A stretch of DNA of 63,893 nt, filler included, from Candidatus Woesearchaeota archaeon (GCA_047603125.1; 5 parts of 5 records of this genome joined end to end with filler, not necessarily neighbours in it); one strand, 5' to 3'; shown: positions 740 through 52,343, numbered from the whole stretch's first letter. Notes: generated from the letters alone by a model not told the origin. Made by a program: numbers and translations.

Positions 740-874
740 TAGTCGACGACATTAATTTCGCATAACTCGGCGATTTCACGACAGTTGTCAAGTTTGCAAA
801 ATCAGAGCTGCATGAATCGCTCTGATTTTTGATTTTACGCCAAGGAGTTATGCTTTTCTTTTGCCGCTAACTAA
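740..874 (-). repeat. Structured repeat, form A, copy 1 (MITE-like imperfect inverted ends)
   Basis: 135-bp near-identical copy at 17061-17195 (one mismatch seen); stem GCATAACTC/GAGTTATGC. Confidence 0.9.
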
Positions 875-929
875 AATAACAAAACCTTTATAAATAAAAA
901 TTCATAAATTTCTCCTACAGGTGTGTATA

Positions 930-1520
930 ATGAAATTATCAAAAAAAGGAACGGAAAAACCTATTGAAATCTTTGTTGCGCTTTTTATCATATTAGCGGT
1001 GGCAATGTTGTTACTAAACATGTTTCGAGATCAGATTTCTGATAGAACAACGCAGTTAAGTGAGTATGAGGCGCAAGCGCGACTCGCGGAAGAATTGTCC
1101 GATGCTCGGTCGTCATGTCAAAACTTGTGTACACAGGCGGTTGCTGGACGATGTACAGAATTGTCTCAGGCAAGATTTTGTATGCAAAAAATTCAGGGTG
1201 GTCTGGATCTAAATGGTGATTCCATTATAGGCGGTGTGGATGAGCAATTATTAGCTGGAGTTGCAATTTGTGAAGATGGAATTTACTGTCCGATGCTTAT
1301 AGAGTGTAATTGCGGGAAGCAATTGACAATGCAAAACTGTCGTGAAGTGCTCTGTTCATATTGGTACAGTCAGGGAATGGACTCTGACGCAGCAAATGCT
1401 CGATTAGAATCAACATATAACGAAGGTACTTGTAACTTAGGTGATCATGAAAACAGCTGGATAAGCTTATATTTCGAAGAAGGTCTCTCTTGCTTTTTTA
1501 ATGGGGATGGAGGCGATTAA
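930..1520 (+). CDS. Class III signal peptide (type IV pilin-like) Cys-rich protein
   Basis: MKLSKKG|TEKPIEIFVALF followed by a hydrophobic helix; first gene of an overlapping operon. Confidence 0.75.
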   Translation: MKLSKKGTEKPIEIFVALFIILAVAMLLLNMFRDQISDRTTQLSEYEAQARLAEELSDARSSCQNLCTQAVAGRCTELSQARFCMQKIQGGLDLNGDSIIGGVDEQLLAGVAICEDGIYCPMLIECNCGKQLTMQNCREVLCSYWYSQGMDSDAANARLESTYNEGTCNLGDHENSWISLYFEEGLSCFFNGDGGD

Positions 1521-1559
1521 GACGTTTACCTCATTACTTTTTTAGAATAATGGAGATTC

Positions 1560-1964
1560 ATGGAACAATCAGTTTGGTTTATTTATGCAGTGCTTGCTGC
1601 TATGGTGATGCTTGGAGTAGTTATAACTATCAGCGTTCAACATAGTGATCAATTAAAATTAGGTCGCTCCGATCGAGTCGCTGATCAGCTCGTTTCCGCG
1701 TGTAATTTTGTTTGTCGCTCAGAAGGTGGGACACAACGTTTTCAGGATGTTGATTTTCCTTCCGGATTAGTCCTTCGTGCTCATGCAAATCAAATATGTA
1801 CAACGTACGATCAGCGTCAAGTTTGTCGTGTTTGTGATTGTTCTTTGTCAGATTACACGTTAGATTTGTCTACTCCACAACACCTTCATATGTTTGATAT
1901 ACATACCTTTCGTTGTTTAATTGCAAAACAAAATGAGACCATTACACTCGATTGCCAAGGCTGA
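1560..1964 (+). CDS. Pilin-like membrane-anchored protein
   Basis: N-terminal hydrophobic helix, Cys pairs, operon context. Confidence 0.65.
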   Translation: MEQSVWFIYAVLAAMVMLGVVITISVQHSDQLKLGRSDRVADQLVSACNFVCRSEGGTQRFQDVDFPSGLVLRAHANQICTTYDQRQVCRVCDCSLSDYTLDLSTPQHLHMFDIHTFRCLIAKQNETITLDCQG

Positions 1965-2328
1965 AGCAAGTACATATATTATTCTTTGGATTATGTCATT
2001 AGTTGCAACACTTGTTGCGGTTGGGTGGTATGTGGAGAATGTTCGTCCCTATAATGTAGAGGCTCGTGCTATTCAAGATGATTTAGTTCGTATTGAAAAC
2101 ACGATTAACACCGCTTGTTTAGAGAATCGATTGTTTTTGAATGCGACATTGTATTTTTCGTTGCAACAAGGTGAGTTAAGAATTCAAAATACGGGAGCGT
2201 GTATAGAGCATCAATTTGAACTTTGTACGCGTTTTATTTGTGCGACTGGTGTTGAGAAAAATATAAGTCTTGAACGATTAGAACCGATATCCGTAATAAA
2301 AGAAAATGGTGCTATTTCGATTTCATAA
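1933..2328 (+). CDS. Pilin-like protein
   Basis: KA|EASTYIIL class III-like motif plus hydrophobic helix. Confidence 0.65.
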   Translation: MRPLHSIAKAEASTYIILWIMSLVATLVAVGWYVENVRPYNVEARAIQDDLVRIENTINTACLENRLFLNATLYFSLQQGELRIQNTGACIEHQFELCTRFICATGVEKNISLERLEPISVIKENGAISIS

Positions 2329-2731
2329 AAAAGGTATTTATGACACAGTGACGTTATTTTTGTTCATTGTAGTTCTTTTAATCGTGTTATTAGGTATGTT
2401 GGGTTTTGGTCAATTATTACTGTTTATAGAAAGTTCACAAATTACACAGGAGCGCCAATCTCTTGATTTTGCTGCAAAGAAAAATGAATTTCTTTCATGT
2501 TATGGTGCAAATTCTCGTGTGGATAGCACACGGTTAAGTAACGATTGTTCAGTTGATTTTGAATATGAGTTCACGGTATTACCGACACAGGCGTGTGATG
2601 ATATTTCCAATCCTTTGCTTATTTCTCAGGATTTTGTTCCTGATAGTTTTCTTCCTCAAGGTGTTTTTACCGTTCCATTTATAAATCAAACAAACTCTAT
2701 AGTTTGTGCAGGGAGGCTTGTGGTTCAATGA
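2306..2731 (+). CDS. Class III signal peptide pilin-like protein
   Basis: HKKG|IYD followed by a hydrophobic helix. Confidence 0.7.
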   Translation: MVLFRFHKKGIYDTVTLFLFIVVLLIVLLGMLGFGQLLLFIESSQITQERQSLDFAAKKNEFLSCYGANSRVDSTRLSNDCSVDFEYEFTVLPTQACDDISNPLLISQDFVPDSFLPQGVFTVPFINQTNSIVCAGRLVVQ

Positions 2732-9077: not shown

Positions 9078-9122
9078 AATGGGATTAAGTGTGCACGTTG
9101 TTTAAATACTTAATGGGTGACA

Positions 9123-9300
9123 GATTTTATCAAGAATTGTTTTTCAAAAGAGCACTCAGATTTTGCTCAAAAGTCCTGCTTTGAGATTCGTGCGAAAATT
9201 CGGTTGCATGTTTTTGGATTCCCATCCTCGCGTTTGAAAGAAGCTTTTAAACAAGCAGTAAATTTTCAAAATTTTTGTAAATTCTGCAAATCTGATCTCA
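9123..9300 (-). mobile_element. Degenerate copy of form C MITE/structured repeat
   Basis: Aligns to 19000-19192; ends decayed. Confidence 0.75.
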
Positions 9301-14703: not shown

Positions 14704-14803
14704 NNNNNNNNNNNNNNNNNNNNNNNNNNNNNNNNNNNNNNNNNNNNTTAATTAATTAANNNNNNNNNNNNNNNNNNNNNNNNNNNNNNNNNNNNNNNNN
14801 NNN
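14704..14803. other. Artificial contig spacer
   Basis: N-run + TTAATTAATTAA + N-run. Confidence 0.99.
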
Positions 14804-14838
14804 TATACTAGTGTCGAAATTGACGTAACTAATATACT

Positions 14839-15180
14839 CTAGAATTCTTCGAAATCTTCGTCAAATTTGAGTAGTCCCTTCTTCTTGAGAACAGGAATTT
14901 GATTTGGTCGATATTTAAAAATAACATCACCTTTTTCATCTCCACCAAACTCCCAGGGTTTTATAAGAAGAACATCACCTTCGCGAGTCCATAATCGTCG
15001 TTTTAATTTACCTGGAATTCTGCAAAGTCGCACTTTTCCGTCCATGCAACGCACTTTCATGCGACTGCCACCAACACGTTCATCAAGAATGCCAAGAACT
15101 TCAGGATCACGTGGTACACGAACCCGAACTACTTCGTTTTGTTGTTGATTTGGTCTATTTGGTCGTTTTTGAAAAGCCAT
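14839..15180 (-). CDS. eif1a: Translation initiation factor aIF-1A
   Basis: VRCMDGKVRLCRIPGK..RR.W.REGD...PW motif. Confidence 0.95.
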   Translation of the reverse strand: MAFQKRPNRPNQQQNEVVRVRVPRDPEVLGILDERVGGSRMKVRCMDGKVRLCRIPGKLKRRLWTREGDVLLIKPWEFGGDEKGDVIFKYRPNQIPVLKKKGLLKFDEDFEEF

Positions 15181-15249
15181 CTATTCATACGTTAATTCGA
15201 GTCCATTTATAAATCTTTGCTCAAAAGACAATGTTTGATTATCATCATC

Positions 15250-15345
15250 AGCACTATTTCCTTGGTGAAATCTCAGAAATCGAGTGATTTATGCAACGAA
15301 GATTTCGCGAATAGACAGCTGTCATAAGATCACCGAAATAGTGCT
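15250..15345 (+). ncRNA. Structured repeat, divergent form A'
   Basis: AGCACTATTTC-CTT-GGTGA...GATTtATGCA...GACAGCTGTC...TCACC-GAAATAGTGCT; same fold as form A with different stems. Confidence 0.7.
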
Positions 15346-15423
15346 TGCTATTTATCTAACAAAGTTCAAACACTGTCGCTCAAAATGAGATTTGAGCAAA
15401 AATTAAAAGAATATAATAATATA

Positions 15424-15480
15424 GGCTTCACCCACTTGTTTTTCAAAGAAGAGCATGCAGATTTGGCTCAAGAGTCTCGC
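15424..15480 (-). mobile_element. Truncated form C MITE (one end)
   Basis: GGCTTCACCC...GAGCATGCAGATTTGGCTCAAGAGTC. Confidence 0.75.
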
Positions 15481-15567
15481 ATAATCTTCATAGAAACAGA
15501 TATAAGTTATGTGCGTCCCTACTGTAAAATAGAAACATTTATATAGCTACATACCCTCACAAAGTTC

Positions 15568-16080
15568 ATGAAAGCACATACAATCCTTGCTAATCTCTTT
15601 GCAATTGTTCTTTTCGTTGCACTTCTCTTTGCACTGCCACAGGAACATGCAGCTATGCAACTTATTGCAATTGTTGCCTACGCACTTATTATTGGCGTTA
15701 CATTTTTCCTTGATAAGCAAACATATGCACTTGTTAATGTTATGCTCAGCGCTGTCATGCTTGCCAATGTTAGTATCATCTTTACAAAAGTGCACTCTTT
15801 GTATCTCATCCCACTTGCAATTTTTTTAGTGTACATATTCGTGAGCAATATTAATACAGTCATGGCTGTACGAAAAGCACCCACTGTTGTTATTAAAAAA
15901 CCAATACGACAAGCCATTAAACAGCCTGTTGTGAAAAAAACAACAAAACAAGTTCGCCGTAAAGGACCGAAAAAGAAAGCAGCAACGACAAAAAAACGTT
16001 CTGCAAAAAAAACCGTGAAAAAGTCTACGAAAAAAGCGACTACAAAAAAGAAACGTGGACGACCAAAAAAGGCAAAATAA
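15568..16080 (+). CDS. Four-TM membrane protein with Lys-rich histone H1-like tail and AT-hook
   Basis: Hydrophobic N-half; KKATTKKKRGRPKKAK C-terminus. Confidence 0.75.
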   Translation: MKAHTILANLFAIVLFVALLFALPQEHAAMQLIAIVAYALIIGVTFFLDKQTYALVNVMLSAVMLANVSIIFTKVHSLYLIPLAIFLVYIFVSNINTVMAVRKAPTVVIKKPIRQAIKQPVVKKTTKQVRRKGPKKKAATTKKRSAKKTVKKSTKKATTKKKRGRPKKAK

Positions 16081-16560
16081 CTACCTTTTTTTCTTAACTC
16101 TTTTTTCAAATTCTTCTGTTAGCATGTGATATAGAACAATCAATACACCGAGCGATATACAGATATCTGCAAAGTTTATTACAGAAAAATATGGAATTGC
16201 AATAAAATCTATAACTGCGCCGTACAAAAACCGATCGACTAAATTTCCCAGCGCACCACCGAGAATAAGCGCAAGCGGTACTCGAAATTTATGGTCAAAG
16301 GATTCAAAATAGACAATTCCAAAAAAAATAATTGCTCCGCTTATAATCATCATAAGCCATTGTAATTGAGAAAATAAACCAAACGCCACCCCCGTATTAT
16401 ATACAATAATAAAATCAATCCAAAAAAATGATTGTGGCTGTTCTAAATTCGCAAGTGCAATTTGCTTGAGTAATCTGTCAAGAAGCGCAACAGCCCCAAT
16501 AATACAAAAAAATGTCAGTTGGCGAGTGTACCACTTACCAGTATTTTTTTCCTTTGACAT
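16081..16560 (-). CDS. lspA: Lipoprotein signal peptidase II
   Basis: NTGVAFG, GGALGNLVDR, VIDF, NFAD motifs. Confidence 0.92.
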   Translation of the reverse strand: MSKEKNTGKWYTRQLTFFCIIGAVALLDRLLKQIALANLEQPQSFFWIDFIIVYNTGVAFGLFSQLQWLMMIISGAIIFFGIVYFESFDHKFRVPLALILGGALGNLVDRFLYGAVIDFIAIPYFSVINFADICISLGVLIVLYHMLTEEFEKRVKKKR

Positions 16561-17017
16561 GTTGTTCAAGAACTGTGAGTCGATGCTGAACATTTTCTAG
16601 TTCAGCACGTATTAAATCTAACCGCGACAAAATTAATTCCGTATCTCGCTTTGAAAACGAATCATTTGAAGACGACTGTGACGTTGAAGATTGCTGCGGC
16701 TGTTCATACCCACTAAACTGGGGTTGAAATGACGAATCTTGGGATGTCTGTGAAAATGCTTGTTGCTGTGAGAGTGTATCATGCGCTAATGAAGATTGGC
16801 CGAAAGGTTGTGTCTGCTGGCTTGATTGTTGCGAATCAAAAGATGATTGCGACATTTGATTTGGTTGCGGTGAATCAAAGGAAGACTGCATTGACGACTG
16901 ATCAAATGCTCCCGGTGCTGACTCTTGTTGTGCTTGTTGTTCCCCTTCTTGTGCGTAACGAGAAAGAATTGAATCCACATCATCCTCTTTTTTCCAGAAT
17001 TTCAATTTATCAAACAT
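16535..17017 (-). CDS. Hypothetical Gln/Ser-rich protein with C-terminal coiled coil
   Basis: Low-complexity middle region; ELILSRLDLIRAEL C-terminus. Confidence 0.7.
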   Translation of the reverse strand: MFDKLKFWKKEDDVDSILSRYAQEGEQQAQQESAPGAFDQSSMQSSFDSPQPNQMSQSSFDSQQSSQQTQPFGQSSLAHDTLSQQQAFSQTSQDSSFQPQFSGYEQPQQSSTSQSSSNDSFSKRDTELILSRLDLIRAELENVQHRLTVLEQHVKGKKYW

Positions 17018-17060
17018 GTTTTAGTTACAGAAAACTGAGTTTAAAAAGATTGCGAATATT

Positions 17061-17195
17061 TAGTCGACGACATTAATTTCGCATAACTCGGCGATTTCAC
17101 GACAGCTGTCAAGTTTGCAAAATCAGAGCTGCATGAATCGCTCTGATTTTTGATTTTACGCCAAGGAGTTATGCTTTTCTTTTGCCGCTAACTAA
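17061..17195 (-). repeat. Structured repeat, form A, copy 2
   Basis: Near-identical to 740-874. Confidence 0.9.
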
Positions 17196-17279
17196 TTTAG
17201 TTGCATAGAAACCCTCTGAATCGTTAGAATTAATACAGTACTTGGTATATTTTCTGTTTATAAGCAACTATTTTTTAAT

Positions 17280-17431
17280 GAGAAACAACACGAAAACTGT
17301 ACTGGAGAGTCCCACTTCCAGTACTTTGCCACAATTTTGCTGCAAGTTTTCAGATTTTTTATCCTCAAGTTTGAAAGAGGCTTTCAAACAATCGCCAAAT
17401 TGTGTAATGGTATTTCAAGGTGTTGTTTCTC
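17280..17431 (-). ncRNA. Structured repeat, form C' (stems rewritten)
   Basis: Form C core retained; GAGAAACAACAC/GTGTTGTTTCTC, GTACTGGA/TCCAGTAC and CACAATTT/AAATTGTG replace the form C stems. Confidence 0.75.
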
Positions 17432-17520
17432 TAAACATTGATTGAGATTAATTGGCACAAGAATTTCTATACGCCCTCACTATCAATACCTTTTTAAATC
17501 CCTGCAAGCTTCACACCCAC

Positions 17521-17685
17521 ATGAAAACACAACAAGCACTCAAAGAAGAGCTTTTAAATAACACAGGCAGTGTTCAGTTTACTTGCCCTAACTGCTTAAA
17601 AGGCAAAATCATTCGTACAAAAAATAATCGTCAAATTATGGCGAGATACACTTGCACAGAATGTGGGTTTGTGGGGCCAAACTAA
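17521..17685 (+). CDS. Small Zn-ribbon protein (DUF1610-like)
   Basis: FTCPNC...YTCTECGFVGP; usual position upstream of aEF-1beta. Confidence 0.88.
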   Translation: MKTQQALKEELLNNTGSVQFTCPNCLKGKIIRTKNNRQIMARYTCTECGFVGPN

Positions 17686-17687
17686 AA

Positions 17688-17966
17688 ATGGCAAAAGTTG
17701 TTGCAACTATTCGCGTCATGCCCGAATCTCCAACTGTTGATTTGGCAATTTTACAAAAGATTGTTGAAGAGAAAATCACAGAATTTGCAGGATCTGCAGA
17801 AAAAAAGTTTGAACAAAAACCGATTGCATTCGGCCTCAAGGCACTTGATGTAACATTTATCATGGATGAAGATTTAGGTTCAACCGATGCACTTGAACAA
17901 ACATTAAAAACAATAGAGCATGTACAAGATGTGCAGACTACTGATGTTCGCCGTGCACTCGGCTAA
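17688..17966 (+). CDS. ef1b: Elongation factor 1-beta
   Basis: VMPESPTVDL, PIAFGLKAL. Confidence 0.95.
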   Translation: MAKVVATIRVMPESPTVDLAILQKIVEEKITEFAGSAEKKFEQKPIAFGLKALDVTFIMDEDLGSTDALEQTLKTIEHVQDVQTTDVRRALG

Positions 17967-18954
17967 GTTTTTGTAATACTTTTTTTATTTTTTCTTCTGG
18001 TAAATTAATACGAATTGATTCTTTTTCAAAAGTAGATTTACAGAGCAAAATATTTTTTTTCTCACAATACTGTTGTATTCGCTCAAAGGAAGGTATATTT
18101 GTTAATTGATGCTGCTTTGCAAACTTACCCATATGTACATACCCGACTTGAGAAATTGCAAATTCGAGTTTCAGTTTTTCAAACCAATCATCAACATGAA
18201 TCTGCTCTAAAAATTTTGAATCTGCTAACGATCCCACATATATTGGCCCGCATTGTTTTTTTTCTTGATCAAAAATAAACTCGTATTTTTGTTTGTCACA
18301 TACACTTCTTGACTTTTTCACACGAAAATAGACTCGATAATAATGATCTTTATGATATGAGAGTAGCGGTACAAGCGCGATTTCATATAAAAAACCAATT
18401 TGCTGACAACTCCGTATCAATGTGCGAATGCCAAATTCATGCTGCCAATACACATCTGCTGGTATCCCCCAGTATCTTCGTTTATGCGTTTGTTTACTTT
18501 TTGAGCAAAGCGCAGCTAAATCAGTTGCAGTTACTGCAACAATGCCATTATGCACAGCATTTTGAATAGCACTTGCAAGAAATGGCAGGGGTGAGCCGAA
18601 GGGATCAATATCAATATAATTAAAAGGCCCATTGGTAAATAAAAATGAATCTGCACGCATGTTTGTAACTGTGCATTTTGTATTATTTTCTTTGAGATTT
18701 TTTTTGATTGCCTCAACTGCTTTTTCAGACCAGTCGTTAGCGTAAAGATTATGTAATTTTGTTTCTTGCAAAATTCGAATCGCACGAACACCACTTCCTG
18801 CTAAGGGTAGAGCGACTTTTGCTTGATGAGGGAGTGTTTTCAAAACTTCAATGCAAACATCCCGATTATGTTTCATTTTTGGATTATAAAATACATTCCC
18901 ATCCGCTAATATATGTTCACTAACTGCGAGTTTTGCATTGTTTTCTTGAATCAT
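17938..18954 (-). CDS. trm1: tRNA (guanine26-N2)-dimethyltransferase
   Basis: VFYNPKM..NRD, IDIDPFGSP, VTATD, HYYRVY. Confidence 0.93.
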   Translation of the reverse strand: MIQENNAKLAVSEHILADGNVFYNPKMKHNRDVCIEVLKTLPHQAKVALPLAGSGVRAIRILQETKLHNLYANDWSEKAVEAIKKNLKENNTKCTVTNMRADSFLFTNGPFNYIDIDPFGSPLPFLASAIQNAVHNGIVAVTATDLAALCSKSKQTHKRRYWGIPADVYWQHEFGIRTLIRSCQQIGFLYEIALVPLLSYHKDHYYRVYFRVKKSRSVCDKQKYEFIFDQEKKQCGPIYVGSLADSKFLEQIHVDDWFEKLKLEFAISQVGYVHMGKFAKQHQLTNIPSFERIQQYCEKKNILLCKSTFEKESIRINLPEEKIKKVLQKLSRVHGEHQ

Positions 18955-18999
18955 TGTCAGTAAGGAAATATGTGTCTTTTAAAAAATAGAGGTTTTTTG

Positions 19000-19192
19000 G
19001 GCTTCATCCAAAAATTGTTTTCAAAAAGAGCACGCAGATTTTGCTCAAGAGTCCCGCTTTGAGAATAAAGCGAAAATTCGGCTGCATCTTTTCGGATTCT
19101 CATCCTCAAGTTTGAAAGAAGCTTTCAAACAATCACCGAATTTTCTCATTTTGCTGCAAGGTGCTCTTTTATCTTATTTTTTGGATGAAGCC
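19000..19192 (-). mobile_element. Intact MITE (form C) with 15-bp TIRs and 9-bp TSD
   Basis: TIR GGCTTCATCCAAAAA/TTTTTGGATGAAGCC; flanking direct repeat GGTTTTTTG (18991-18999, 19193-19201). Confidence 0.93.
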
Positions 19193-19210
19193 GGTTTTTT
19201 GGTAGAAACA

Positions 19211-19672
19211 TTATTCACTTAACTGAACAGAGTCTTGGCGTTCTCCTAAGATAGGAACTTCCCCGTAAAATTGATATGTTTGAAAATTTCGTAGATTTTT
19301 ATATGTAAAGTCAATATGTATTCGATAAACCTCTTCTATTTGAACTTGCTCTGTAAAAACGGAAATATTTCCTTGTTCACGCGGATCTAACACTAATAAA
19401 ATCGAATGCTCATTTGAGTTTAATGAAATATTTGTTATATTAATTGAATGCGCTAAATTATTTTGAACCACAAGAAAAAGATGTGTTTGATTTGCCACAT
19501 GCGCAACTATCCCAATATCACTTGCAGACCAATAACTTTGTGACGCGCGAACTTCTGCTGAGCTTCCTATAGCAGGAAATTCAAAGAGAGGGAGAATTGC
19601 AACTACAAGTAAAATAAGAATTAAACTCAATAATATCAAATATTCTGTTGCCCCTTGACTTTTTTTGTTCAT
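19211..19672 (-). CDS. Class III signal peptide pilin-like protein (short form)
   Basis: KKS|QGATEYL; paralog of the N-terminus of the upstream gene. Confidence 0.85.
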   Translation of the reverse strand: MNKKSQGATEYLILLSLILILLVVAILPLFEFPAIGSSAEVRASQSYWSASDIGIVAHVANQTHLFLVVQNNLAHSINITNISLNSNEHSILLVLDPREQGNISVFTEQVQIEEVYRIHIDFTYKNLRNFQTYQFYGEVPILGERQDSVQLSE

Positions 19673-19674
19673 TT

Positions 19675-22155
19675 TTAGCTCTGTATTTCCACATCCCCTA
19701 TTGTCCAGAAGGCCGAGTTATTTTGTTGTATGTTTACCAATGTCTGCAGTTCTTCTTCGCTCAATGCTCTTTGAACAAAACCCAGCTCGTCTGCAAAACC
19801 TCTAAAGGACCAAGTACCTCTATCGACCCAGCCCCCTATATGTAAATCGTTCAAAGAAGGACCCCATTCTCCTGAAGGAGCTGAACGAGAAGTTATTAAG
19901 TTTCCATTATAGTACAGCCTAAGAGATGTGCCATCTCGAACTAATGCGAGATGAGTCCATTGTGAATAGTATCCTGAGAAACTTTGTTGGCTAGTGAAAT
20001 GTCCCGAGCTTGCAACTCGAGTTCTTGCCTCTACGTTACTACTCGTAAGCTCATGCAAATAAAGCTCATTTGTACTATCATCTCGAAAACCAAAGAGCGG
20101 CTGATGAATACCAAGGTTTTGAATATAAAACCACCCAAAAATCGTAGCTTGATCATGGCCACTTAATTGATCAGCGGTTTGTGAAATTATTATTCTTTGA
20201 CCACCACTTATTTGCGTTAAATTTTGCGCATAACCAACTAAACCATCCATTTGTACAATTTGTGAAGGTGCAGTTTTAAGACTTTCAAAATCATTCTGTG
20301 TTTCATCCTTTATGTGCGTGTTATTCTTGTCACTCATTGTGGAATAAAAGGCATGATGCTCACTCCACACATTATGCATCCCATACAAGTCATCATCAGC
20401 AAAATCAGAAGCTAAAGAATTGTTAAAGTACACAAAATACTCTGTCGGCGTATCCGTAGCAAGCTCATCAGCATAGAAATAGATAATACCACGTTTTTGT
20501 GAAGCATTAAAATCCCGTACTCCTCTTGCGAGTTGCGTTTGCCCATCAGCCAAAGTTATTCGTATATCCCTACCATCACTTTGAACGGAATCCCAAAAGT
20601 CATCGTCTGAGATTTGCGATAAATCAAAAACAGCACCATATGGGTAGGATGCATTTACAAGAGAGTCATCAGAAGAGATGGAAAAGCGATTCGACCAATC
20701 GTTAAAGATGTGGGTCTGATTACCATCCCACGCTACAGGAAGCACTTCTTCTTCAATCGTCACTTGCCTAAGAGACGTTTCTAATAATTGACCCTGTGTA
20801 TTAGAAGCGAATGCTTGAAAGCTATATGTTTGTGGTACTAAATTACTAAATGTCCGTTCATAATTATCTGCAGAAGCATTATATAAAGATTGAATTTCTG
20901 ATTCTGAGAGTGCGCGATTAAAAATCATCACTTGGTCAAGTGAGCCTGAGAAGTACGTTTCCCACACAGTCCCCGGAAGATGACGACCTAACTCTAATGG
21001 TGTTTCTGTTTCGCTCATTCTTTGATAACTGCTGCCAATAAATGTTTCTGAAGATACTAGTTGCCCATCCACATACAACTCTAGTTCTGCCGTCAAAGGG
21101 TCGCCACCTGGATGAACAACTGCCACATGCTTCCATTGACCTAAATAATTTGTAAAAGGTTCATCAGCAATTGTTCTTGCCCAGTTATTTACACCATCTC
21201 CTGCAGCCCCATCGATTCTATCAAGGCGTAAGATGCCCTCAGTTGTAACGAAAAACCGATATTCTCCGCCTTGACCAACATGCGTTGTAATATCATGTTT
21301 TTGTAATATGTAATTGTTGCTGTCATCTGATGCAATATTAATCCATGCACTCATAGTAAAAGGCAATTCTTGCGAACCCTGTACGAAATTAAATTGAGAA
21401 TTATGACCAATAGAAATATGATCCCCAACTCCATCAAAAGAAAACGCTTGGCCAAACCTGCCAGCAGTTTGCGTTGCACCAGTATTTAAACCATGGTGTT
21501 CTCCCATCTGATCGAGAACATGTGTTTCATTATACTCATCCATTCGCCACCAAGCAACTAAGGAATCATTCCAATTAAGAGCGATAAAGTAATCTGAAGG
21601 AAATGTAGATTCTGCACGAATAGTTACGTTTTCAGAAATTTGAGTTGACTGATGCGCGGGTGTTGGCGCAGTAAAATATAATTCCGGAACAAATGGATCA
21701 GGTATGGGTTCACCCGTGGCTAACCCCATAAGAGGAATTTCACCAAAATAGGTGTAACTTTGTTGTGTTCGTAAATTCATGTACACAAAGTCCACATGAA
21801 ACTGGTAATTCTGTGCCTGCGTGAGGGGTATTTCTAACTCAATAAGCACACTCTTTTGCTCACCGGGCTTTAATTCAATATGGGTTTGATGCGAAATGTC
21901 TTCTATGAGTATTTGCGTAATATTAATGGAATGCAATAAATTATTTTGTAGGGCAAAGAGCATATGTGAGTAATTAAACGTATGACCGACTATACCGATT
22001 TCACTCATTTTCCAATAGGATTCTGATGCTCTTGACTCAAAGGAGCTTGCCATCATTCCAAATTCTAAAAAAGGTATGAGAATTATAATAAGAATCACTA
22101 ATATGACACCTAATAGTATCAAATACTCCGTTGCACCCTGACTTTTTGTTTGCAT
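19675..22155 (-). CDS. Pilin-like protein with LamG, DUF2341-like and second LamG domains
   Basis: KS|QGATEYL; LVAWWRMDE, WKHVAVV, LYVDG, RALS..EI; SDGRDIRIT. Confidence 0.85.
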   Translation of the reverse strand: MQTKSQGATEYLILLGVILVILIIILIPFLEFGMMASSFESRASESYWKMSEIGIVGHTFNYSHMLFALQNNLLHSINITQILIEDISHQTHIELKPGEQKSVLIELEIPLTQAQNYQFHVDFVYMNLRTQQSYTYFGEIPLMGLATGEPIPDPFVPELYFTAPTPAHQSTQISENVTIRAESTFPSDYFIALNWNDSLVAWWRMDEYNETHVLDQMGEHHGLNTGATQTAGRFGQAFSFDGVGDHISIGHNSQFNFVQGSQELPFTMSAWINIASDDSNNYILQKHDITTHVGQGGEYRFFVTTEGILRLDRIDGAAGDGVNNWARTIADEPFTNYLGQWKHVAVVHPGGDPLTAELELYVDGQLVSSETFIGSSYQRMSETETPLELGRHLPGTVWETYFSGSLDQVMIFNRALSESEIQSLYNASADNYERTFSNLVPQTYSFQAFASNTQGQLLETSLRQVTIEEEVLPVAWDGNQTHIFNDWSNRFSISSDDSLVNASYPYGAVFDLSQISDDDFWDSVQSDGRDIRITLADGQTQLARGVRDFNASQKRGIIYFYADELATDTPTEYFVYFNNSLASDFADDDLYGMHNVWSEHHAFYSTMSDKNNTHIKDETQNDFESLKTAPSQIVQMDGLVGYAQNLTQISGGQRIIISQTADQLSGHDQATIFGWFYIQNLGIHQPLFGFRDDSTNELYLHELTSSNVEARTRVASSGHFTSQQSFSGYYSQWTHLALVRDGTSLRLYYNGNLITSRSAPSGEWGPSLNDLHIGGWVDRGTWSFRGFADELGFVQRALSEEELQTLVNIQQNNSAFWTIGDVEIQS

Positions 22156-22158
22156 TTG

Positions 22159-22863
22159 TTAAAAATTACCTATGAGTAGCAAGACGATATACATAAAGAT
22201 TCCGAAAATAAAGTAGGTTATAGGAGCCTGATCGTGACGAGGATGAAGTATTGTCGTAATTAAATAAACAAATGTCCCTCCAAAAAAGGCGTAGAACAAA
22301 ATAAGGGGAAAGTTGAACAGATGCGTGAGGGCGATTGCCAGAACAGAACCGATAAAAATCAAAAAGGGAAGAACAAATTTCTCATCAATGGTTTCTTTGG
22401 ACCACTTTGTCAAATCTTCATACAATAATGTTGTGGCAATAATGTGAAGCGTCAAGGGAACAAGTAAAATAAATGTCTGAAATAAATTTGTCTGATCATA
22501 GGTGTACACCAGTATGAATCCTGTAATAAAGTGAATCAAATGAATTCCTGCTGATCGAATGAATATAACTTTTTGTTTTATAGAAATTTGCTTGCCAAGT
22601 GCGGCAAATGTACGCTTTTCTGCTAAATAAAACCCGATATAACCGACAAACATGCTAAACGCTGCAACTCGTGCAAGCTCACCACTGTGAATAATGATTT
22701 CTGGAATTAACGTGAGAAAAATATATGCAAACATGAGTCCACCCGTCATATTAATAATGAGCTGACGATGCTTTTTTGCATGTGGCATTAAGTGCGTAAG
22801 AAAATATAAGAACAATGCATAACTCAAAGCAATAATGATGGGAAATATCTGTTGTTCAATCAT
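22159..22863 (-). CDS. Multi-pass membrane protein (possibly ZIP-like)
   Basis: About 8 TM helices; YIFLTLIPE motif and His residues in helices. Confidence 0.65.
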   Translation of the reverse strand: MIEQQIFPIIIALSYALFLYFLTHLMPHAKKHRQLIINMTGGLMFAYIFLTLIPEIIIHSGELARVAAFSMFVGYIGFYLAEKRTFAALGKQISIKQKVIFIRSAGIHLIHFITGFILVYTYDQTNLFQTFILLVPLTLHIIATTLLYEDLTKWSKETIDEKFVLPFLIFIGSVLAIALTHLFNFPLILFYAFFGGTFVYLITTILHPRHDQAPITYFIFGIFMYIVLLLIGNF

Positions 22864-23000
22864 ACGTATTATGAGAAAGTCCAGTTTATAAAGAATTCAC
22901 ACCACTTTCAAGTTAAAAAAAAGAAGCCATAGCCTAAAAAGGCTAGGCAAAACAGACCTTCAACCACGTCGTTTGGGGGTGACTGCACAGTTGAGGCAAG

Positions 23001-23028
23001 AAAAAAATGGTACCTCAAAGAGTACCAT
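23001..23028 (-). terminator. Hairpin + U-tract directly after ftsZ
   Basis: ATGGTAC-8nt-GTACCAT followed by T-run on the minus strand. Confidence 0.65.
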
Positions 23029-23032
23029 GAGT

Positions 23033-24097: not shown

Positions 24098-24397
24098 GTT
24101 TTTTTCCCCCTTATGAGTGGTTTGTTGTGTGTATCATTTGTTCGAATGATTATGATAGTTTTATAGAGCTGTCGCTATTATAGTCTGTAAACTATATATA
24201 GTTGAACCTAAGTATTTTTAAGTAAGTTCGCCCTATGTATTCTTAGAAGTTAACCAATGTTTCCTAACTCGCCAAAGTTATGGAAATCGCCAATTCAAAC
24301 AGTTGTTCGCCAAAACAACTTTCTTATACTTATTATTTTGAAGTTTAGTATTTAAATAATTAATGGTTTTCTAGTGTGTATGTTTGAAAGATTGTTT

Positions 24398-28967: not shown

Positions 28968-29040
28968 ACATGTTTTTTGGAAAGTTGTCTTTATAAATTT
29001 TTTAGCAATTTCAAGGTTTGTGTAAAAATAAAAAGAAATA

Positions 29041-29177
29041 AGCAATATTACCTTGATGCCTCATTACGACATGGCGCGATTGTTTGAAAGCTTCTTTCAA
29101 ACTTGAGGATGAAAATCCGAAAATATGCAGCGCCTCGTCGGCAAGATACGCGAGTCCAAATCAATCGTAATATTGCT
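29041..29177 (+). ncRNA. Structured repeat, form C'' (stems rewritten)
   Basis: AGCAATATTAC-CTT-GAT...form C core...ATC-GTAATATTGCT. Confidence 0.75.
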
Positions 29178-29181
29178 GTAA

Positions 29182-29256
29182 AATAACAAAAGTTCGCTGC
29201 TCGAAGCTAATTGAAAAACACAAGTTTTTCAAACCCAGAAAACTAGAAAGTTTTCT
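29182..29256 (+). repeat. Repeat D (double hairpin)
   Basis: Reverse complement of 53401-53475; partial copy at about 560-597. Confidence 0.85.
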
Positions 29257-29356
29257 NNNNNNNNNNNNNNNNNNNNNNNNNNNNNNNNNNNNNNNNNNNN
29301 TTAATTAATTAANNNNNNNNNNNNNNNNNNNNNNNNNNNNNNNNNNNNNNNNNNNN
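29257..29356. other. Artificial contig spacer
   Basis: N-run + TTAATTAATTAA + N-run. Confidence 0.99.
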
Positions 29357-29496
29357 CCGGTAAAATCTTCAAACAGATATAATTATAATGCGGCAATTTT
29401 AGAACGGTGGTTCATCTTGCGAATTTCTCCGGTGCCAAGCTTCGCGGAATTCTGATTTTGCGCCAAGGCATTATAATTTTGTATTGTCGTCGACTA
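29357..29496 (-). repeat. Structured repeat, form B, copy 1
   Basis: Inverted homolog of 35114-35257; ATTATAATGC-GGC...GCC-AAG-GCATTATAAT. Confidence 0.85.
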
Positions 29497-31308: not shown

Positions 31309-31324
31309 TTTTCTTTTGTGTTTC

Positions 31325-32700
31325 TCAATCCCATGAACCATCTGGACCAATGCGAGCAACAAAAATATCGTTATCACCAGTTGCTGTAAATTCTTGTGAA
31401 CCAAATAAAACAGTGTTTTCAAAAGCACCAGTTACTAATATAGAATCATCTGATAAACTACTAACACCTAAACCAACATCATTACCAATTCCCCCAATAT
31501 TCATTGCCCAAACCCAGTCACCATCTGAATCTATTCGAGCAACAAAAACATCTGTTCCTCCCACAGATGTGAGTTCATAGGAACCAAATGTGACTGTATC
31601 TCGAAACAATCCAGTTATTATGGCAGAATTATCAGACAAAATATCTATTCCCTGCGATGTATCAAAATTTTCTGAACCTTCCGCATTTGTGACCCACATC
31701 CAATTTCCATCCGAATCTATTCGAGCAACAAAAATATCCCCACCACCCTGTGATATGATTTCATTGGAACCAAATGTTACTGTACCTTCAAAATAGCCCG
31801 TCATAACAGCCGAATTATCGGACAAAATTGTGATACCTCTCCCTTCAACATCACCAGAACCACCAGCAGTAGTTGCCCAAACCCAGTCACCATTAGAATC
31901 TATCTTAGCAACAAAAATATCAGTACCACCCGCTGATATGATTTCATTGGAACCAAATGTCGCATTACCTGAGAAACCACCTGTGACAATAGCAGAACCA
32001 TCGGGAAAAATATCAACACCTCTACCTGAAGGTACAGCTCCCGTTGTATTCGCGCTTGTTACCCACTCCCATTCCCCATTTGCATCAACTTTAGCAACAA
32101 AAATCTCATTCCAACCCGCAGAAGTTATCTCAAGAGCTCCAAATGTTGCTGTTCCTTGAAAAAAACCTGTAATTATTGCAGAACCATCCGCTAAAGTCTT
32201 AACATCCCACCCCTCATCATTTCCACTCCCGCCCGCTTGTATAGCAAATGGTTCAAATGTCGTACTACCAGAAGAACCACCATTCGAACCTGATTGTGGT
32301 GGCAATGTTGCAGAAACCTGTCGTGTCGAATCTGAACCAATGGGTGCCCAATCAATTATAACATCAGACATCGCACCCCCTGCGGGCAAGTCACTCTATA
32401 TCGAGAGCCGACATTAAGTGTAACGGGCGTTAATAAACACGATTGCCCATCTAAACTCACATTCAATAATCGAATTGTTCGAGGCTGATTATTAAGCAAG
32501 AAAAACCCAATATCTTCACCATCTTCATACATATCAACGATTCCAACATCAAGTAAACGCAATTGCGCAGCATCTACCTGCTCGCCTGCTCCACCACCAA
32601 TTGAAGGAATTCCACCTAAAGAACCGACGACAATTAAAGCGATTATAATAACGACTGCCGTAATTATAAGATACTCAGTAGCAGTTTGCGCAACATTCAT
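31325..32700 (-). CDS. Pilin-like protein with beta-propeller head, split by a frameshift at about 32376-32380
   Basis: ORFs 32356-32700 (AQTATEYL) and 31325-32389 (G..DIFVAR.DSDG.W.W repeats) align continuously with paralog 44690-45367. Confidence 0.8.
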
Positions 32701-35113: not shown

Positions 35114-35257
35114 TAGTCGACAACAATAAAAATTATAATGCCTTGGCGCAGAATCAGAATTTCGCAAAGCTCTGCGCCTGAGAAATTCGCAAGATGAACC
35201 ACTGTTCGAAGATCGCCGCATTATAATAATTTACTTATGTTTAAAACTATTTACCCG
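35114..35257 (+). repeat. Structured repeat, form B, copy 2
   Basis: TAGTCGACAAC...ATTATAATGC-CTT-GGCG...CGCC-GCATTATAAT. Confidence 0.85.
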
Positions 35258-37711: not shown

Positions 37712-37889
37712 TGTCTTTTCCTTTCTTAAATCATCTCCAACTCAGTAATGAGTTACTAGATAATATGTGTAACAAACACAGTTTGTTATGAATAACAATT
37801 AATGGTAATGTACTATAATATGTTAATATTGTGACATGCCAATTTCTTTAACTTCAAGCGACTATACTAAGGATATAAAACATATGCGA

Positions 37890-39364
<1,475 letters not shown>

Positions 39365-39424
39365 TTTTTTTCAAAAAATACTAATCAACACTCGATTTGA
39401 TTATGCATTACCATTAATTGTTAT

Positions 39425-39498
39425 GGGCTTGTAGCTCAGTCCGGTAGAGCACCTGCCTTGCAAGCAGGGGGTCCCGAGTTCGAATCTCGGCGAGTCCA
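39425..39498 (+). tRNA. tRNA-Ala(TGC)
   Basis: Cloverleaf with anticodon TGC in the 16S-23S spacer. Confidence 0.96.
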
Positions 39499-42671: not shown

Positions 42672-43308
42672 AGCAAAAGTCAGCCTGATTGTGTTAAGAC
42701 CAAAAATTGACACAAACACGAAAGTGTGGTTTAGCGAACTTCCGTACCTCCTTAATGGGGGTCGGGAATGACCGAAAAGTTACTCCGGGGATAACAGAGT
42801 TGTCCCGCCCGAGAGCTCGTATCGACGGCGGGGCTTGCTACATCGATGTCGGCTCTTCCTATCCTGGGCGTGCAGAAGCGTCCAAGGGTGGGGGTGTTCA
42901 CCCATTAAAAGGGATCGTGAGCTGGGTTCAGAACGCTGTGAGGCAGTTTGTTTGATATCTATTAGATTTGTTGTATGTCTGAAAGCAAGGGACCTTTAGT
43001 ACGAGAGGAACAAGGTGTCGAAGCCTCTGGTGTACCGGTCATCTGACAAGGTGACGCCGGGCAGCTACGCTTCAAGGGATAAGCGCTGAAAGCATCTAAG
43101 CACGAAACCCCGCTTGAAAAGAGACATATTGCCACGCTTATAGAAGATAAGTTTGATGGAGTTGCTGTGTACGGCACAAGCTCACGCGAGTGTTTTAGCA
43201 GGCAACCCCCAATTGTGGTTACCTGTATAGTCATAATCTATGTATGTATGGTTCTTTTTTTTTCTTTACAAATGCAACTTTTTTAAATAAATACAGTATT
43301 GTTCTTTT

Positions 43309-43693: not shown

Positions 43694-43793
43694 NNNNNNN
43701 NNNNNNNNNNNNNNNNNNNNNNNNNNNNNNNNNNNNNTTAATTAATTAANNNNNNNNNNNNNNNNNNNNNNNNNNNNNNNNNNNNNNNNNNNN
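43694..43793. other. Artificial contig spacer
   Basis: N-run + TTAATTAATTAA + N-run. Confidence 0.99.
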
Positions 43794-43807: not shown

Positions 43808-43997
43808 TGCTTCATCCAATAAATGTTTTTCAAAGAAGAGCACGCAGATTTGGCTCAAGAGTCCCGCTTTGAGAATCATGCGAAAATTCAGCTACACCTT
43901 TTCAGATTTCCATCCTCAAATTTGAAAGAAGCTTTCAAACAATCATCGAATTTTCTGATTTTACTGCAAGATGCTCCTTCTTTTTTTGGATAAAGCC
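43808..43997 (-). mobile_element. Form C MITE copy
   Basis: GCTTCATCCAA...TTGGATAAAGCC; full internal match. Confidence 0.9.
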
Positions 43998-47262: not shown

Positions 47263-47378
47263 ATAAACACCTGCACAATTTCTGTTTAGAGAGTTTATTA
47301 ATATTTATGTTTTAAGCCAGCACAATAAAGAGTCGCTGCGTAGTGGTCATATGAGATTTGAACAAACTCACAAAAAAC

Positions 47379-47574
47379 TGCTTTATCCAGTAATTGTTTT
47401 TTTAAAAGAGAGCACGCAGATTTGGCTCAAGAGTCCCACTCTAAGAATAGTGCGAAAATTCAGCTGCATCTTTTCGGATTTTCATCCTCAAGTTTGAAAG
47501 AGGCTTTCAAACAATCGCCGAATTTTCTGATCTAGCTACAAGGTGCTCCTTTTTCTTATTTTTTGGAGGAAGCA
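47379..47574 (-). mobile_element. Form C MITE copy with 9-bp TSD
   Basis: TGCTTTATCC...GGAGGAAGCA flanked by ACAAAAAAC (47370-47378, 47575-47583). Confidence 0.9.
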
Positions 47575-47619
47575 ACAAAAAACAAAAGCCTTTTAAAGCC
47601 TTATAACTTTTTCCTTATT

Positions 47620-50516: not shown

Positions 50517-50556
50517 AATAATGAGTAATAAATCAGTATTTAAAAAGTCAGTGGAT

Positions 50557-50946
50557 TCAACTTAAATAAATATGCTCATATAGTTTGGCACCCGCCCAAG
50601 AAAATAAAAGAAAAGAGACAAAAACGAAAGGAAATGTTATTAAAACTTCTAAAAAAAACCAGAAGTGGTCTCTCGTTAATATATAAATTATCAAAGGGAT
50701 CAGCAAATTTAAAAACACTTTAAATAATGCAAAATATAAGCTCACTTTCAATGCATTTCGAACATTTTTTGATATTCGCATGGCTTCCATCCCAATTAAA
50801 AAAAATATAGCATAGATAAAGAAAAGTGTTAACCATTGAAAAAAAGATGATTGAAATATAAACTGATTTACTAACATAAATACATGCTGCACTACCATTA
50901 ATACTAGCAACAAAGAAAATTTTAAAATCGTTGGCGCATCATACAT
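50557..50946 (-). CDS. Membrane protein
   Basis: Four hydrophobic helices. Confidence 0.6.
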   Translation of the reverse strand: MYDAPTILKFSLLLVLMVVQHVFMLVNQFIFQSSFFQWLTLFFIYAIFFLIGMEAMRISKNVRNALKVSLYFALFKVFLNLLIPLIIYILTRDHFWFFLEVLITFPFVFVSFLLFSWAGAKLYEHIYLS

Positions 50947-51044
50947 AAACTAAATCATATTGAAATATTTATAAATTTTTGTATAAAACTTACAAATAGG
51001 CATCCCGAAATTAAGATTAATCACCCCTGCAATAAATTCAAAAT

Positions 51045-52079
51045 TCACACCATATACGAATCTAAATATTGCTGCTGATCACAACTATGCGAGAGGTGGG
51101 AAATTTTTACTCCAAGTAAGCGAACAGGGCGAAGATTCCAAAAATCAAAAAATAATTTTGTTAATATCTGCTTGACCGAATCAGATTTTGCCGGTAAAAT
51201 TGTGCATTGCTTTAATGTTGTTGTAAAATCATCATAGCGAATTTTAATACTAATCGTTCTATATGTGACCGGGCAGTCCACCGTTTTCTCAAAAAGGCTG
51301 TGCAAGGTCTGCACTAATGTTTTTTGACAAGAAATATCATAATCAAATGTTGTTTCATGTGAGATTGATTTTTCTTTTTTATAGGGGCTCATTCCCGTTC
51401 GATCATTTCCCGTGGCTAAAAACCAATATTTATATGCATGCTTTCCAAAATGCTCCATAACCCAAAAAATATCTTTCTTTGCCAAGTCTCCGATAGTATA
51501 TACTCCTTTTTCTTGATAATGGGAAATACTCTTTTTTCCAATCCCAGGTATTTTTTCAATTGCAAGCGGATGCAAAAAAGCTTGATGATTTTTTACAACC
51601 GTAATACCGGACGGTTTATGATGGTCACTTGCCATTTTCGCCACACGACTTGAATTTGCAACACCAATAGAGCAAGTATACCCTGTTTTTTCAAATAAAA
51701 ACGCACGAATATACTTTGCGCCACCAAGCCAGCCTTTTTTTTGTGCCAATGTTGTTATATCTAAAATGGCCTCATCAATGGAGCGCGCCTCATAGGAATC
51801 ACAAATTTGTGCAAGATAGGAGAATATTTTTTGCGACTCTTGTTGATAATATCTGTGTTGGGGTTTTACAAAAACACCCTGTTTACAAAGAGCCCTTGCT
51901 TGAGAAATGGGCATTGCACTGTGCACACCAAAGGCGCGTGCATGATAATTTGCAGTACTGACGACACCCCTATTTGTTGTTGAACCGATAATAAGTGGTT
52001 TATCAAATAACCAGGGCTTTTGCTTGACTTCACACGCCGCAAAAAAGCAATCCATATCCACATATGCATAGACTCGCAT
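51045..52079 (-). CDS. dinB: Y-family DNA polymerase IV
   Basis: VDMDCFFA, ANY.AR.FGV.SAM, SIDEA, VRLLGV. Confidence 0.95.
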   Translation of the reverse strand: MRVYAYVDMDCFFAACEVKQKPWLFDKPLIIGSTTNRGVVSTANYHARAFGVHSAMPISQARALCKQGVFVKPQHRYYQQESQKIFSYLAQICDSYEARSIDEAILDITTLAQKKGWLGGAKYIRAFLFEKTGYTCSIGVANSSRVAKMASDHHKPSGITVVKNHQAFLHPLAIEKIPGIGKKSISHYQEKGVYTIGDLAKKDIFWVMEHFGKHAYKYWFLATGNDRTGMSPYKKEKSISHETTFDYDISCQKTLVQTLHSLFEKTVDCPVTYRTISIKIRYDDFTTTLKQCTILPAKSDSVKQILTKLFFDFWNLRPVRLLGVKISHLSHSCDQQQYLDSYMV

Positions 52080-52151
52080 GATTTTATACTGGTATTTTTT
52101 ATTTATAAATATCCTGAACGCATCTGTCCAGTGGGATAGTGGTTGCAGAGA

Positions 52152-52343
52152 AACTTCATACAATAATTGTTTTTCAAAAAAGAGCACGCAGATTTGGCTC
52201 AAGAGTCCCGCTTTGAGAATCATGCAAAAAATCGGCTACACTTTTTCGGATTCCCATCCTCAAGTTTGAAAGAAGCTTTCAAACAATCACCGAATTTTCT
52301 GATTTTGCTGCAAGGTGCTCTTTTTCTTTTTTTGAATGAAGTC
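52152..52343 (-). mobile_element. Form C MITE copy
   Basis: AACTTCATAC...GAATGAAGTC ends; full internal match. Confidence 0.88.

Follow-up and report, generated by a model that had tools for sequence, protein, structure and literature searches.

Why should short repeats that look unrelated in sequence share one architecture? The question is raised by a stretch of 63,893 bases from Candidatus Woesearchaeota archaeon (GCA_047603125.1), hereafter the window, in which a first-pass annotation had seen about 13 intergenic copies of an undescribed structured-RNA family. The window comprises five contigs of one 1.12-Mb assembly (36% G+C, 70 contigs; here G000), connected through linkers of the form N..TTAATTAATTAA..N (14704-14803, 29257-29356, 43694-43793 and 57410-57509), so that gene neighbourhood across these four points is not real. 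The assembly contains an archaeal rRNA operon, and several copies of the repeats adjoin contig ends, as is usual for repeats. We find that the copies are the core of non-autonomous DDE-type MITEs (miniature transposable elements with inverted repeats); this core is mobile, keeps one covarying fold with a marked strand asymmetry, and is present in two autonomous insertion sequences. Very probably it serves transposons as a module whose fold is under selection.

A set of 24 short-form copies from the genome was aligned with MAFFT (alignment A1), and a covariance model with 23 base pairs, R1, was derived from them, a variable hairpin termed P3 being left unpaired because its register varies between forms. 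In the window R1 matches 11 copies, each at E ≤ 7e-10 (two of form A, one A', two B, four C, one C' and one C''), and in the 1.12-Mb genome 115 at E ≤ 0.01; these approximately 115 copies cover about 1.5% of the 1.1-Mb genome. The earlier count of about 13 therefore stands for 11 full copies, the other two being one decayed and one partial copy. A naive scan for a stem, CTT and a helix was unspecific, CTT giving 227 matches as against 57-389 for other triplets.

The anatomy of the elements is constant: a terminal inverted repeat (TIR), a spacer of 8-25 nt, the core of 90-150 nt, a second spacer and a second TIR, with a target-site duplication (TSD) outside. They are 134-196 bp long, multi-copy and devoid of a transposase gene. 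Form A elements end in 12-bp TIRs (TAGTTAGCGGCA...TGTCGTCGACTA), and the same 3 nt stand on both flanks outside the TAGT..ACTA ends in 17/17 full A copies; form B has the same end type and 3-bp duplication. Form C elements have the ends GGCTTCATCCA...TGGATGAAGCC, and in 12 of the 22 C copies with both ends preserved the 9-nt flanks match at 8 or 9 positions, perfectly so in 8. Duplications of 9 nt are also found in A' (CAGTGTTTGAA) and C'' (TTTGTGTAAAAA). The A copies are 97-100% identical among themselves, which indicates recent movement. In total, at least six end types enclose one core (TAGTYRRCGACA; GGCTTCATCCA or GGCTTTGCACG; CAGTGTTTGAA; TTTGTGTAAAAA; TTGTTGCATA; CTCTGTCCCAAGAGTC), the relatives adding GGCTTTGCACGAAAAGT (with a 9-bp duplication), TTGTTGCATA and CTCTGTCCCAAGAGTC. 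No direct repeats that would mark the core as a separately inserted unit were seen around its closing stem, P1. The copies in the window are as follows, the strand given being that of the CUU bulge described below.

740..873, minus strand: form A MITE, full element; core 761-852, CUU strand minus; TIRs TAGTCGACGACA at 740-751 and TAGTTAGCGGC, read on the other strand, at 863-873; TSD AAA at 737-739 and 874-876
17061..17194, minus strand: form A MITE, second copy; core 17082-17173; TSD ATT; 99% identity to the 740..873 copy
15228..15377, plus strand: form A' MITE; core 15253-15342; TIRs ACAATGTTTGA and TTCAAACACTGTC; 9-nt flanks GCTCAAAAG and GCTCAAAAT, 8/9 identical
35114..35249, plus strand: form B MITE; TIR TAGTCGACAACA at 35114-35125; ends ..AAAACTA at 35249; core 35134-35225; TSD TTT
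29357..29496, minus strand: form B MITE at a contig start; core 29384-29475; right TIR TGTCGTCGACTA at 29485-29496; left end indistinct or lost at the contig end
19000..19192, minus strand: form C MITE, long form; TIRs GGCTTCATCCA and TGGATGAAGCC; core 19026-19168, its P2 loop carrying a two-hairpin module; 9-bp TSD GGTTTTTTG on both sides
43808..43997, minus strand: form C MITE, long form; core 43836-43978; 14 nt from a contig start
47379..47574, minus strand: form C MITE, long form; core 47408-47550; 9-bp TSD ACAAAAAAC on both sides
52153..52342, minus strand: form C MITE, long form; core 52180-52322; TIRs degenerate
9122..9299, minus strand: decayed form C copy, 66% like the reference, without a closing stem; no R1 match at E ≤ 0.001
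15424..15480 (approximate), minus strand: form C element fragment, one side only; no R1 match at E ≤ 0.001
17284..17427, minus strand: form C' core, long form; P1 AGAAACAACAC/GUGUUGUUUCU; 4-bp helix GAAA/UUUC
29015..29174, plus strand: form C'' element; left TIR GGTTTGTGTAAAAA at 29015-29028; core 29044-29174; right end swapped for a distinct repeat (about 190 nt), which occupies the contig from 29175 up to its end at 29256

The first-pass annotation had treated the copies as self-contained units, which they are not: they are inner parts of longer elements. A free-standing intergenic RNA gene family is likewise no longer tenable, since every well-preserved copy is a MITE core accompanied by TIRs and by 3-bp or 9-bp duplications. 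The same features dispose of a single-stranded DNA transposition substrate in the sense of IS200/IS605 and its palindrome-associated transposable elements (PATEs), because such elements have neither TIRs nor duplications.

Read on the strand carrying the CUU bulge (the CUU strand; its complement, which is transposase-sense, is the AAG strand), every full core begins with P1, an invariant C|CUU|G bulge and a helix of exactly 4 bp, opens into a three-way junction, and continues with P2, an invariant G, the variable hairpin P3 and closure. The linker that follows the 4-bp helix is A-rich and terminates in UCA, while P2 is capped by GAUU(N1-4)UGCA (GAUUYAUGCA) or by the same loop split by about 42 extra bases that form two added hairpins. 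The architecture originally proposed (stem, CUU bulge, short stem, A-rich linker, capped P2, hairpin, closure) was recovered on reading every copy that had been named. Its sequence is extensively rewritten: the 4-bp helix, for instance, occurs as GGCG/CGCC, GGUG/CACC, GCAG/CUGC, GAAA/UUUC and, in C'', GAUG/AUC. In A1, 89.2% of 609 cells pair, as against 61.4% in shuffles (0/500 reach the observed value) and 32-43% when partners are slid, and both sides are altered in 24 of 26 pairs. In alignment A2, which holds 89 distinct copies from 8 genomes and, being fitted to R1, is biased towards the model, 92.9% of cells pair versus 60.2% shuffled and 35-44% slid. The unpaired bases are conserved in A2 (CUU 96-100%, UCA 86-98%, GAUU 89-99%, UGCA 84-99%, the invariant G 100%), as is the 4-bp helix, whose pairs are 96% paired and whose first pair after the bulge is G-C in 86/89 copies and G.U in 3. 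Support for P3 is modest: of 82 distinct segments, 89% are predicted to form a hairpin with 3 bp or more, and the mean minimum free energy (MFE) is -4.95 versus -3.04 shuffled. One covarying fold is thus common to forms that are unlike in sequence, as had been claimed. The first-pass annotation had not recognised it as a known family, and no Rfam family matches: with Rfam 15, only rRNA and tRNA reach the gathering score over the whole window, and at E ≤ 10 no match, ribozyme families included, overlaps the four copies within 14804-19400. Two further structures were considered and rejected, namely a pseudoknot between linker AAUC and loop GAUU, which is lost in several forms and sterically implausible, and a kink-turn, which needs tandem sheared G.A pairs after the 3-nt bulge, where G-C stands in 86/89 copies and G.U in 3.

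The optional domain in P2 always consists of two hairpins, although its sequence is unlike among G000 and the related genomes G007 and G008. In the window this module of about 42 nt (..GUUUGAAAGCUUCUUUCAAAC..GGAUGAGAAUCC..) is seen for example at 19060-19130, 17330-17395 and 29078-29131. It is variably present in the otherwise unrelated core forms A, A4, C, C' and C'', and some short forms keep a GUU/GUC remnant; this patchy presence and these remnants suggest that the module has been exchanged or lost at the conserved GAUU/UGCA borders. Metagenome contigs from four DNA runs that fall on 14804-29256 include other copies with short or long P2 loops, and their summed depth is 10-20x higher over the repeats; no contig bridging an empty site was found among them.

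The conserved bulge invites a reading in which the core is processed or cleaves itself. The CUU bulge and 4-bp helix would then be a relaxed bulge-helix-loop for the splicing endonuclease, yielding a circular RNA, or part of a new self-cleaving ribozyme. In keeping with this, the bulge is 3 nt long in nearly all copies (CUU 96-100%), so that the 3-nt bulge and 4-bp helix of a bulge-helix-bulge (BHB) motif are both present, the helix behind the bulge being 4 bp in all forms and opening with G-C in 86/89; this genome's own 16S flanking stem (37770-37895 with 39360-39430) has a BHB-like arrangement of a 3-nt UAC bulge followed by a 4-bp helix; and the conserved unpaired bases are grouped in the bulge, the junction and the internal-loop-like GAUU/UGCA, as in small ribozymes. 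The motif's second 3-nt bulge and the further helix that should close it are nevertheless missing, and the Rfam ribozyme families found nothing at E ≤ 10 in the four copies of 14804-19400, which makes processing or self-cleavage improbable. A strict BHB was rejected outright, the strands after the 4-bp helix (..AAAAUCA and ..AAU) being unpaired in every form. The 23S flanking stem of this genome (39612-39642 with 43224-43254) is an unbroken 32-bp helix with no bulges.

Which of the two strands folds can be judged from imperfect pairs: transitions make G.U or A.C from a Watson-Crick pair equally often, and an A.C is a G.U on the other strand. Among the 31 distinct P2 arm pairs of family C in G000, G.U/U.G occurs 25 times and A.C/C.A 3 times (binomial p = 2.7e-5 with relatedness ignored, a value that overstates the significance because the copies are related), and the P2 apex within the family alternates between C-G, U.G and U-A with almost no C.A. 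In A2 the G.U to A.C ratio is 69:37 overall, made up of 13:12 in P1, 11:4 in helix H and 45:21 in P2; H and P2 together give 17:13, 12:1, 18:11, 3:0, 3:0, 2:0 and 1:0 in the individual genomes. A cruder count of 1x1 mismatches gave 17:6 (G000 4:4; relatives 13:2). The MFE is lower on the CUU strand in 78/116 cores, and it is when this strand is read that GNRA loops (GAGA, GCGA) appear. The excess of G.U over A.C identifies the CUU strand as the folding strand; the inner helices are kept on it, and P1 is unbiased. The earlier suggestion that selection acts on a single-stranded fold is thereby supported, and for the CUU strand specifically (25:3 in family C, 69:37 overall).

Within the same taxonomic family R1 matched 6/9 other genomes, with 2-35 matches each, as against 1/51 genomes from the order's other families; a further 150 sampled genomes added matches in families f128 (5/10), f32 (1/4) and f38 (1/1). 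A degenerate 17-base pattern, applied to one genome per species, hit at least 107 stretches, of which R1 confirmed 47 of 80 among the matches listed. All 47 of these confirmed matches lie in metagenome-assembled genomes titled Candidatus Woesearchaeota or, in four bins, 'uncultured Methanosarcinales', and no bacterial match among those listed was confirmed by R1. Viral contigs gave 2 matches to the pattern and 0 confirmed by R1, while a 22-base core pattern found 8 stretches in metagenome contigs, all of them unrelated GC-rich DNA. Loop and bulge retain their bases throughout six end types and in four or more taxonomic families.

Longer versions carrying an open reading frame (ORF), which the first-pass annotation had proposed to look for, do exist. 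When five genomes were searched for transposases (G000, G001, G005, G007 and G008), DDE_Tnp_1 genes were found in G007 and G005 only, one in each, scoring 58.8 and 48.6 bits (cut-off 23), and each beside an R1 match. The element of G007 is about 1.27 kb long, with perfect 15-bp TIRs at 1118-1132 and 2373-2387 of locus L093; a frame of 390 aa occupies 1141-2313 on the minus strand and the core 1156-1255 on the plus strand, so that the CUU strand is antisense to the transposase. The frame traverses the core and stops four codons past it. The copy in G005 (L096, G005:C28) has the same layout and a protein 54% identical to that of G007, with two in-frame TGA codons, one aligned with the conserved Trp of the RWGIE motif in the G007 protein and the other with Ala; it is probably a pseudogene, the alternative being TGA read as Trp. 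The transposase motif is YKCRWGIE..K and the best NCBIfam model ISH3 (E = 5e-31), but the transpos_ISH3 score of 107.9 bits is under the curated cut-off of 225; the elements are ISH3-like. They show a possible imperfect 5-bp duplication. The two insertion sequences come from sister genera; in both, the core is found 21-24 nt inward of the left end and runs antisense to the transposase frame over its final ~35 codons.

Two consequences follow for the fold. Both arms of P1 are located at one end of the insertion sequence, 1.2 kb from the other TIR, so that the fold is local and not a by-product of pairing between terminal repeats. Moreover, the residues encoded over P2 are wholly different between the two insertion sequences, which means that conservation of the core is structural and not at the protein level; a coding constraint was rejected for this reason and because the transposase-sense frame is open in only 41/103 cores. 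It could be argued that the core has no function at all, its covariation reflecting MITE palindromy, with both ends binding one transposase, together with hitch-hiking hairpins; the outer stems do run on into the TIRs, and P1 lacks strand asymmetry. We consider this very improbable, given that the whole fold sits at one end in the insertion sequences, that the hairpins P2, H and P3 lie in the interior and bear no relation to the ends, that the loop and bulge bases are constant over six end types and at least four taxonomic families, and that G.U is far above A.C in P2. Furthermore, C-type TIR pairs up to 195 bp apart yielded one genuine internal-deletion derivative (C25:7882-8000, 119 bp), those 95 and 96 bp apart lying inside full elements.

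For the TAGT and GGCTT end types the searches turned up no transposase, and the ISH3-like insertion sequence need not be the source of all MITEs; one MITE of G007 has ends similar to its own. In G000, searches with PF01609 (DDE_Tnp_1), PF00665 (rve), PF13358 (DDE_3), PF07282 (TnpB zinc-ribbon domain) and PF00078 (RVT_1) were negative, and a single Y1_Tnp fragment of 67 aa was recovered (C25:38117-38290); a search of five genomes found no TnpB. Among 12 ORFs adjoining copies in relatives, compared with Pfam, 10 are housekeeping genes and 2 have no family, none being a transposase, and a transposase query of metagenome contigs returned no relative. TIR pairs 1.5-2.5 kb apart in G000 were dismissed as chance, as they enclose ordinary genes and no transposases.

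A TATA-like box (TTTATAAA, at most 1 mismatch) stands at a fixed spacing from the element ends: in A copies exactly 13 nt from the 3' end in 9/17 and from the 5' end in 5/17, in C copies exactly 15 nt from the 5' end in 9/22 and from the 3' end in 3/22. For A and C alike the duplication is centred about 11 bp upstream of the box, immediately beyond the TFB recognition element (BRE), as in the flanks 874-900 and 18960-18999, and A-rich BRE-like bases between element and box indicate that the promoters fire away from the element. According to crude gene calls around about 75 copies, 27 are divergent, 18 tandem and co-oriented with the CUU strand, 27 tandem and opposed, and 3 convergent. On the AAG strand, a T-rich tract is found 3' of the core (T fraction 0.48 vs 0.31), with runs of at least four T in 64% of 76 copies in G000 as against 21% on the other strand, and in 33% versus 23% of 39 copies in relatives.

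This tract bears on a further possibility, that the functional strand is AAG and that fold and tract together end and stabilise the transposase mRNA and, in the MITEs, insulate genes. The transposase frames of both insertion sequences, which cross the core and stop just beyond it, would suit such a terminator, and terminator-like elements borne by MITEs are known in bacteria (SPRITE, as reported in PMC10969869). The G.U pairs, however, point to the CUU strand, the T tract is missing in many relatives, and a gene reads into the core on the AAG strand in only 34/82 copies. Archaeal termination is not known to need a hairpin. A terminator or 3'-end signal consequently seems to us quite improbable, somewhat more so than processing or self-cleavage.

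Beyond the observations themselves, we infer the nature of the folded molecule and its role. That the fold matters to the elements themselves follows from the fact that derivatives selected only for mobility or retention nevertheless show compensated variation and keep the core in six end types. The core would be a portable cis module of transposons, acting as a folded single strand bound by a protein, and we give this reading about an even chance. The molecule that folds may be RNA, an antisense or cis-regulatory transcript of the element, a proposition we place slightly below an even chance; in its favour are the GNRA loops, the A-rich strands of the junction, the peripheral hairpins that may be present or absent, and the core's antisense placement within the insertion sequences. 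Alternatively, the CUU strand might fold as DNA, on the lagging-strand template or in a transposition intermediate, its hairpin junction being read by a host protein or by the machinery of transposition, in the way that integron integrases act on folded attC sites through extrahelical bases. In favour of this, the element is a piece of mobile DNA, its fold persists in non-coding derivatives selected only for mobility or retention, it has no evident promoter and no orientation bias towards host genes, and G.T is likewise the best-tolerated mismatch in DNA. The core is also found either way round with respect to the subterminal sequences of TAGT-type elements (A versus B), which suits a signal independent of transcription. 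On the other hand, TIRs with fixed 3-bp or 9-bp duplications are the mark of double-strand DDE cut-and-paste, which is not known to require a single-stranded substrate; the loops, junction strands and peripheral hairpins just listed are more RNA-like; and the elements have no linked HUH or tyrosine enzyme, the one Y1_Tnp fragment being all that G000 contains. Folding as single-stranded DNA is in our opinion rather unlikely, though the most credible of the readings set against RNA. As to the inversion itself, the core of A and that of B (740-873 and 35114-35249) face opposite ways with respect to the TAGTCGAC-type end and to the subterminal sequences AAAAG / ATTAAT, an arrangement that would be consistent with the segment enclosed by the P1 arms having flipped.

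Several observations weigh against the reading of the core as a portable cis module that folds as a single strand. P1 lacks strand asymmetry (13:12), and that of the G000 copies in A2 is weak (17:13). No promoter is evident inside the elements, which instead lie immediately upstream of promoters firing outwards; their orientation to neighbouring genes is unbiased (tandem 18 vs 27), making a role that depends on host read-through unlikely; and the T-rich tract on the AAG strand would instead fit the 3' end of a transposase mRNA. The core was found in none of the other ISH3-like loci of the order (0/28, L115 of genome G321 included) and in none of the DDE_Tnp_1 loci of five other core-bearing genomes (0/9, with one 15-bit match at E = 0.09). 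With the core at just 2 of the transposase loci examined, the insertion sequence may have acquired it and not be its source. Finally, the sequencing runs for this genome are 8 DNA runs from 2 studies, all lake-water metagenomes, with no RNA run among them.

A bolder version of the portable module is that the core, folded as RNA or as a single strand, acts as a transposase-independent cofactor needed in cis for mobilisation by several unrelated DDE transposases, or tethers the transpososome to the archaeal pre-initiation complex. The tether would explain why 3-bp and 9-bp elements both land with their duplication centre about 11 bp upstream of a TATA box; we regard this bolder version as unlikely.

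Two other repeats were noticed in the window. The repeat of about 190 nt that replaces the right end of the C'' element (29175-29256) recurs at about 53381-53480, and at least 13 copies, 94-100% identical, are present in G000. It has no TIRs, starts with TTATTGAGAGTTTCGCGGG.., ends with ..GCGAACTTTTGTTATT, contains many GC hairpins and follows a TTATT word, which in 6/13 copies is the T-rich tract beside a core; from these features it resembles a PATE of the IS200/IS605 type. At 31320-32213, inside a long minus-strand ORF that probably encodes a repeat-domain protein, stand 4-5 tandem units of 183-186 nt that are 61-72% alike.

How does the core compare with known systems? With ISH3 and the IS4-IS5 superfamily, the two core-bearing elements share a DDE_Tnp_1 transposase, 15-bp TIRs and their best model; they differ in a score below the curated cut-off, and the MITE duplications are of 3 and 9 bp where those of ISH3 are of 4-5 bp. 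The attC sites of integrons are folded single-strand sites whose fold is kept though the sequence varies, the integrase reading extrahelical bases and bulged bases setting the choice of strand. As a working analogy only, attC and the core have in common a closing stem with extrahelical bases on one strand and a variable terminal structure. Unlike the core, attC is recombined by a tyrosine integrase, without TIRs or target duplications, and no integrase is linked to the elements described here.

The omega RNAs of IS200/IS605 TnpB, archaeal examples of which are discussed in PMC12558985, resemble the core in being structured non-coding modules that lie over the 3' end of a transposon ORF and are kept in non-autonomous derivatives. 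They are sense-strand, end in a guide outside the element and belong to TnpB/Y1 elements without TIRs or duplications. The core, by contrast, is antisense and closed by its own stem, and no TnpB was found in five genomes.

A further parallel is offered by prokaryotic MITEs with structured transcripts, among them Correia/NEMIS of Neisseria, ERIC of enterobacteria, QMITE of Coxiella, SPRITE, BOX and RUP of pneumococcus and the SM elements of Sulfolobus. Like these, the present elements are short, non-coding, multi-copy and intergenic, with TIRs, target duplications and stable stem-loops, and some of those MITEs are described as acting at the level of RNA, through cleavage by RNase III or RNase E, as small RNAs or in a terminator-like manner (PMC10969869). 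Unlike them, the elements examined here have one three-way-junction core of about 90 nt with invariant bulge and loop bases, strand-specific covariation and at least six end types, and combine 3-bp and 9-bp duplications under that one core with an optional two-hairpin domain. No description of a portable core of this kind was found in the literature, as judged on titles and abstract openings, and on the same basis no precedent turned up for a cis-acting folded nucleic acid in DDE transposons. If the fold were only a terminator or stability element, the finding would be an ordinary one.

MITEs are usually regarded as reduced transposon ends without a function of their own. One strand-specific covarying junction in at least six end types suggests instead that the life cycle of DDE transposons involves a folded nucleic acid acting in cis. 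It offers a compact RNA or DNA motif that is open to testing in DPANN, an archaeal group without genetics, and together with the fixed distance to the TATA box it provides a way into the question of how extremely compact genomes accommodate mobile DNA. Should the core prove to be a cofactor, or a tether to the pre-initiation complex, it would represent a new principle for cut-and-paste transposons.

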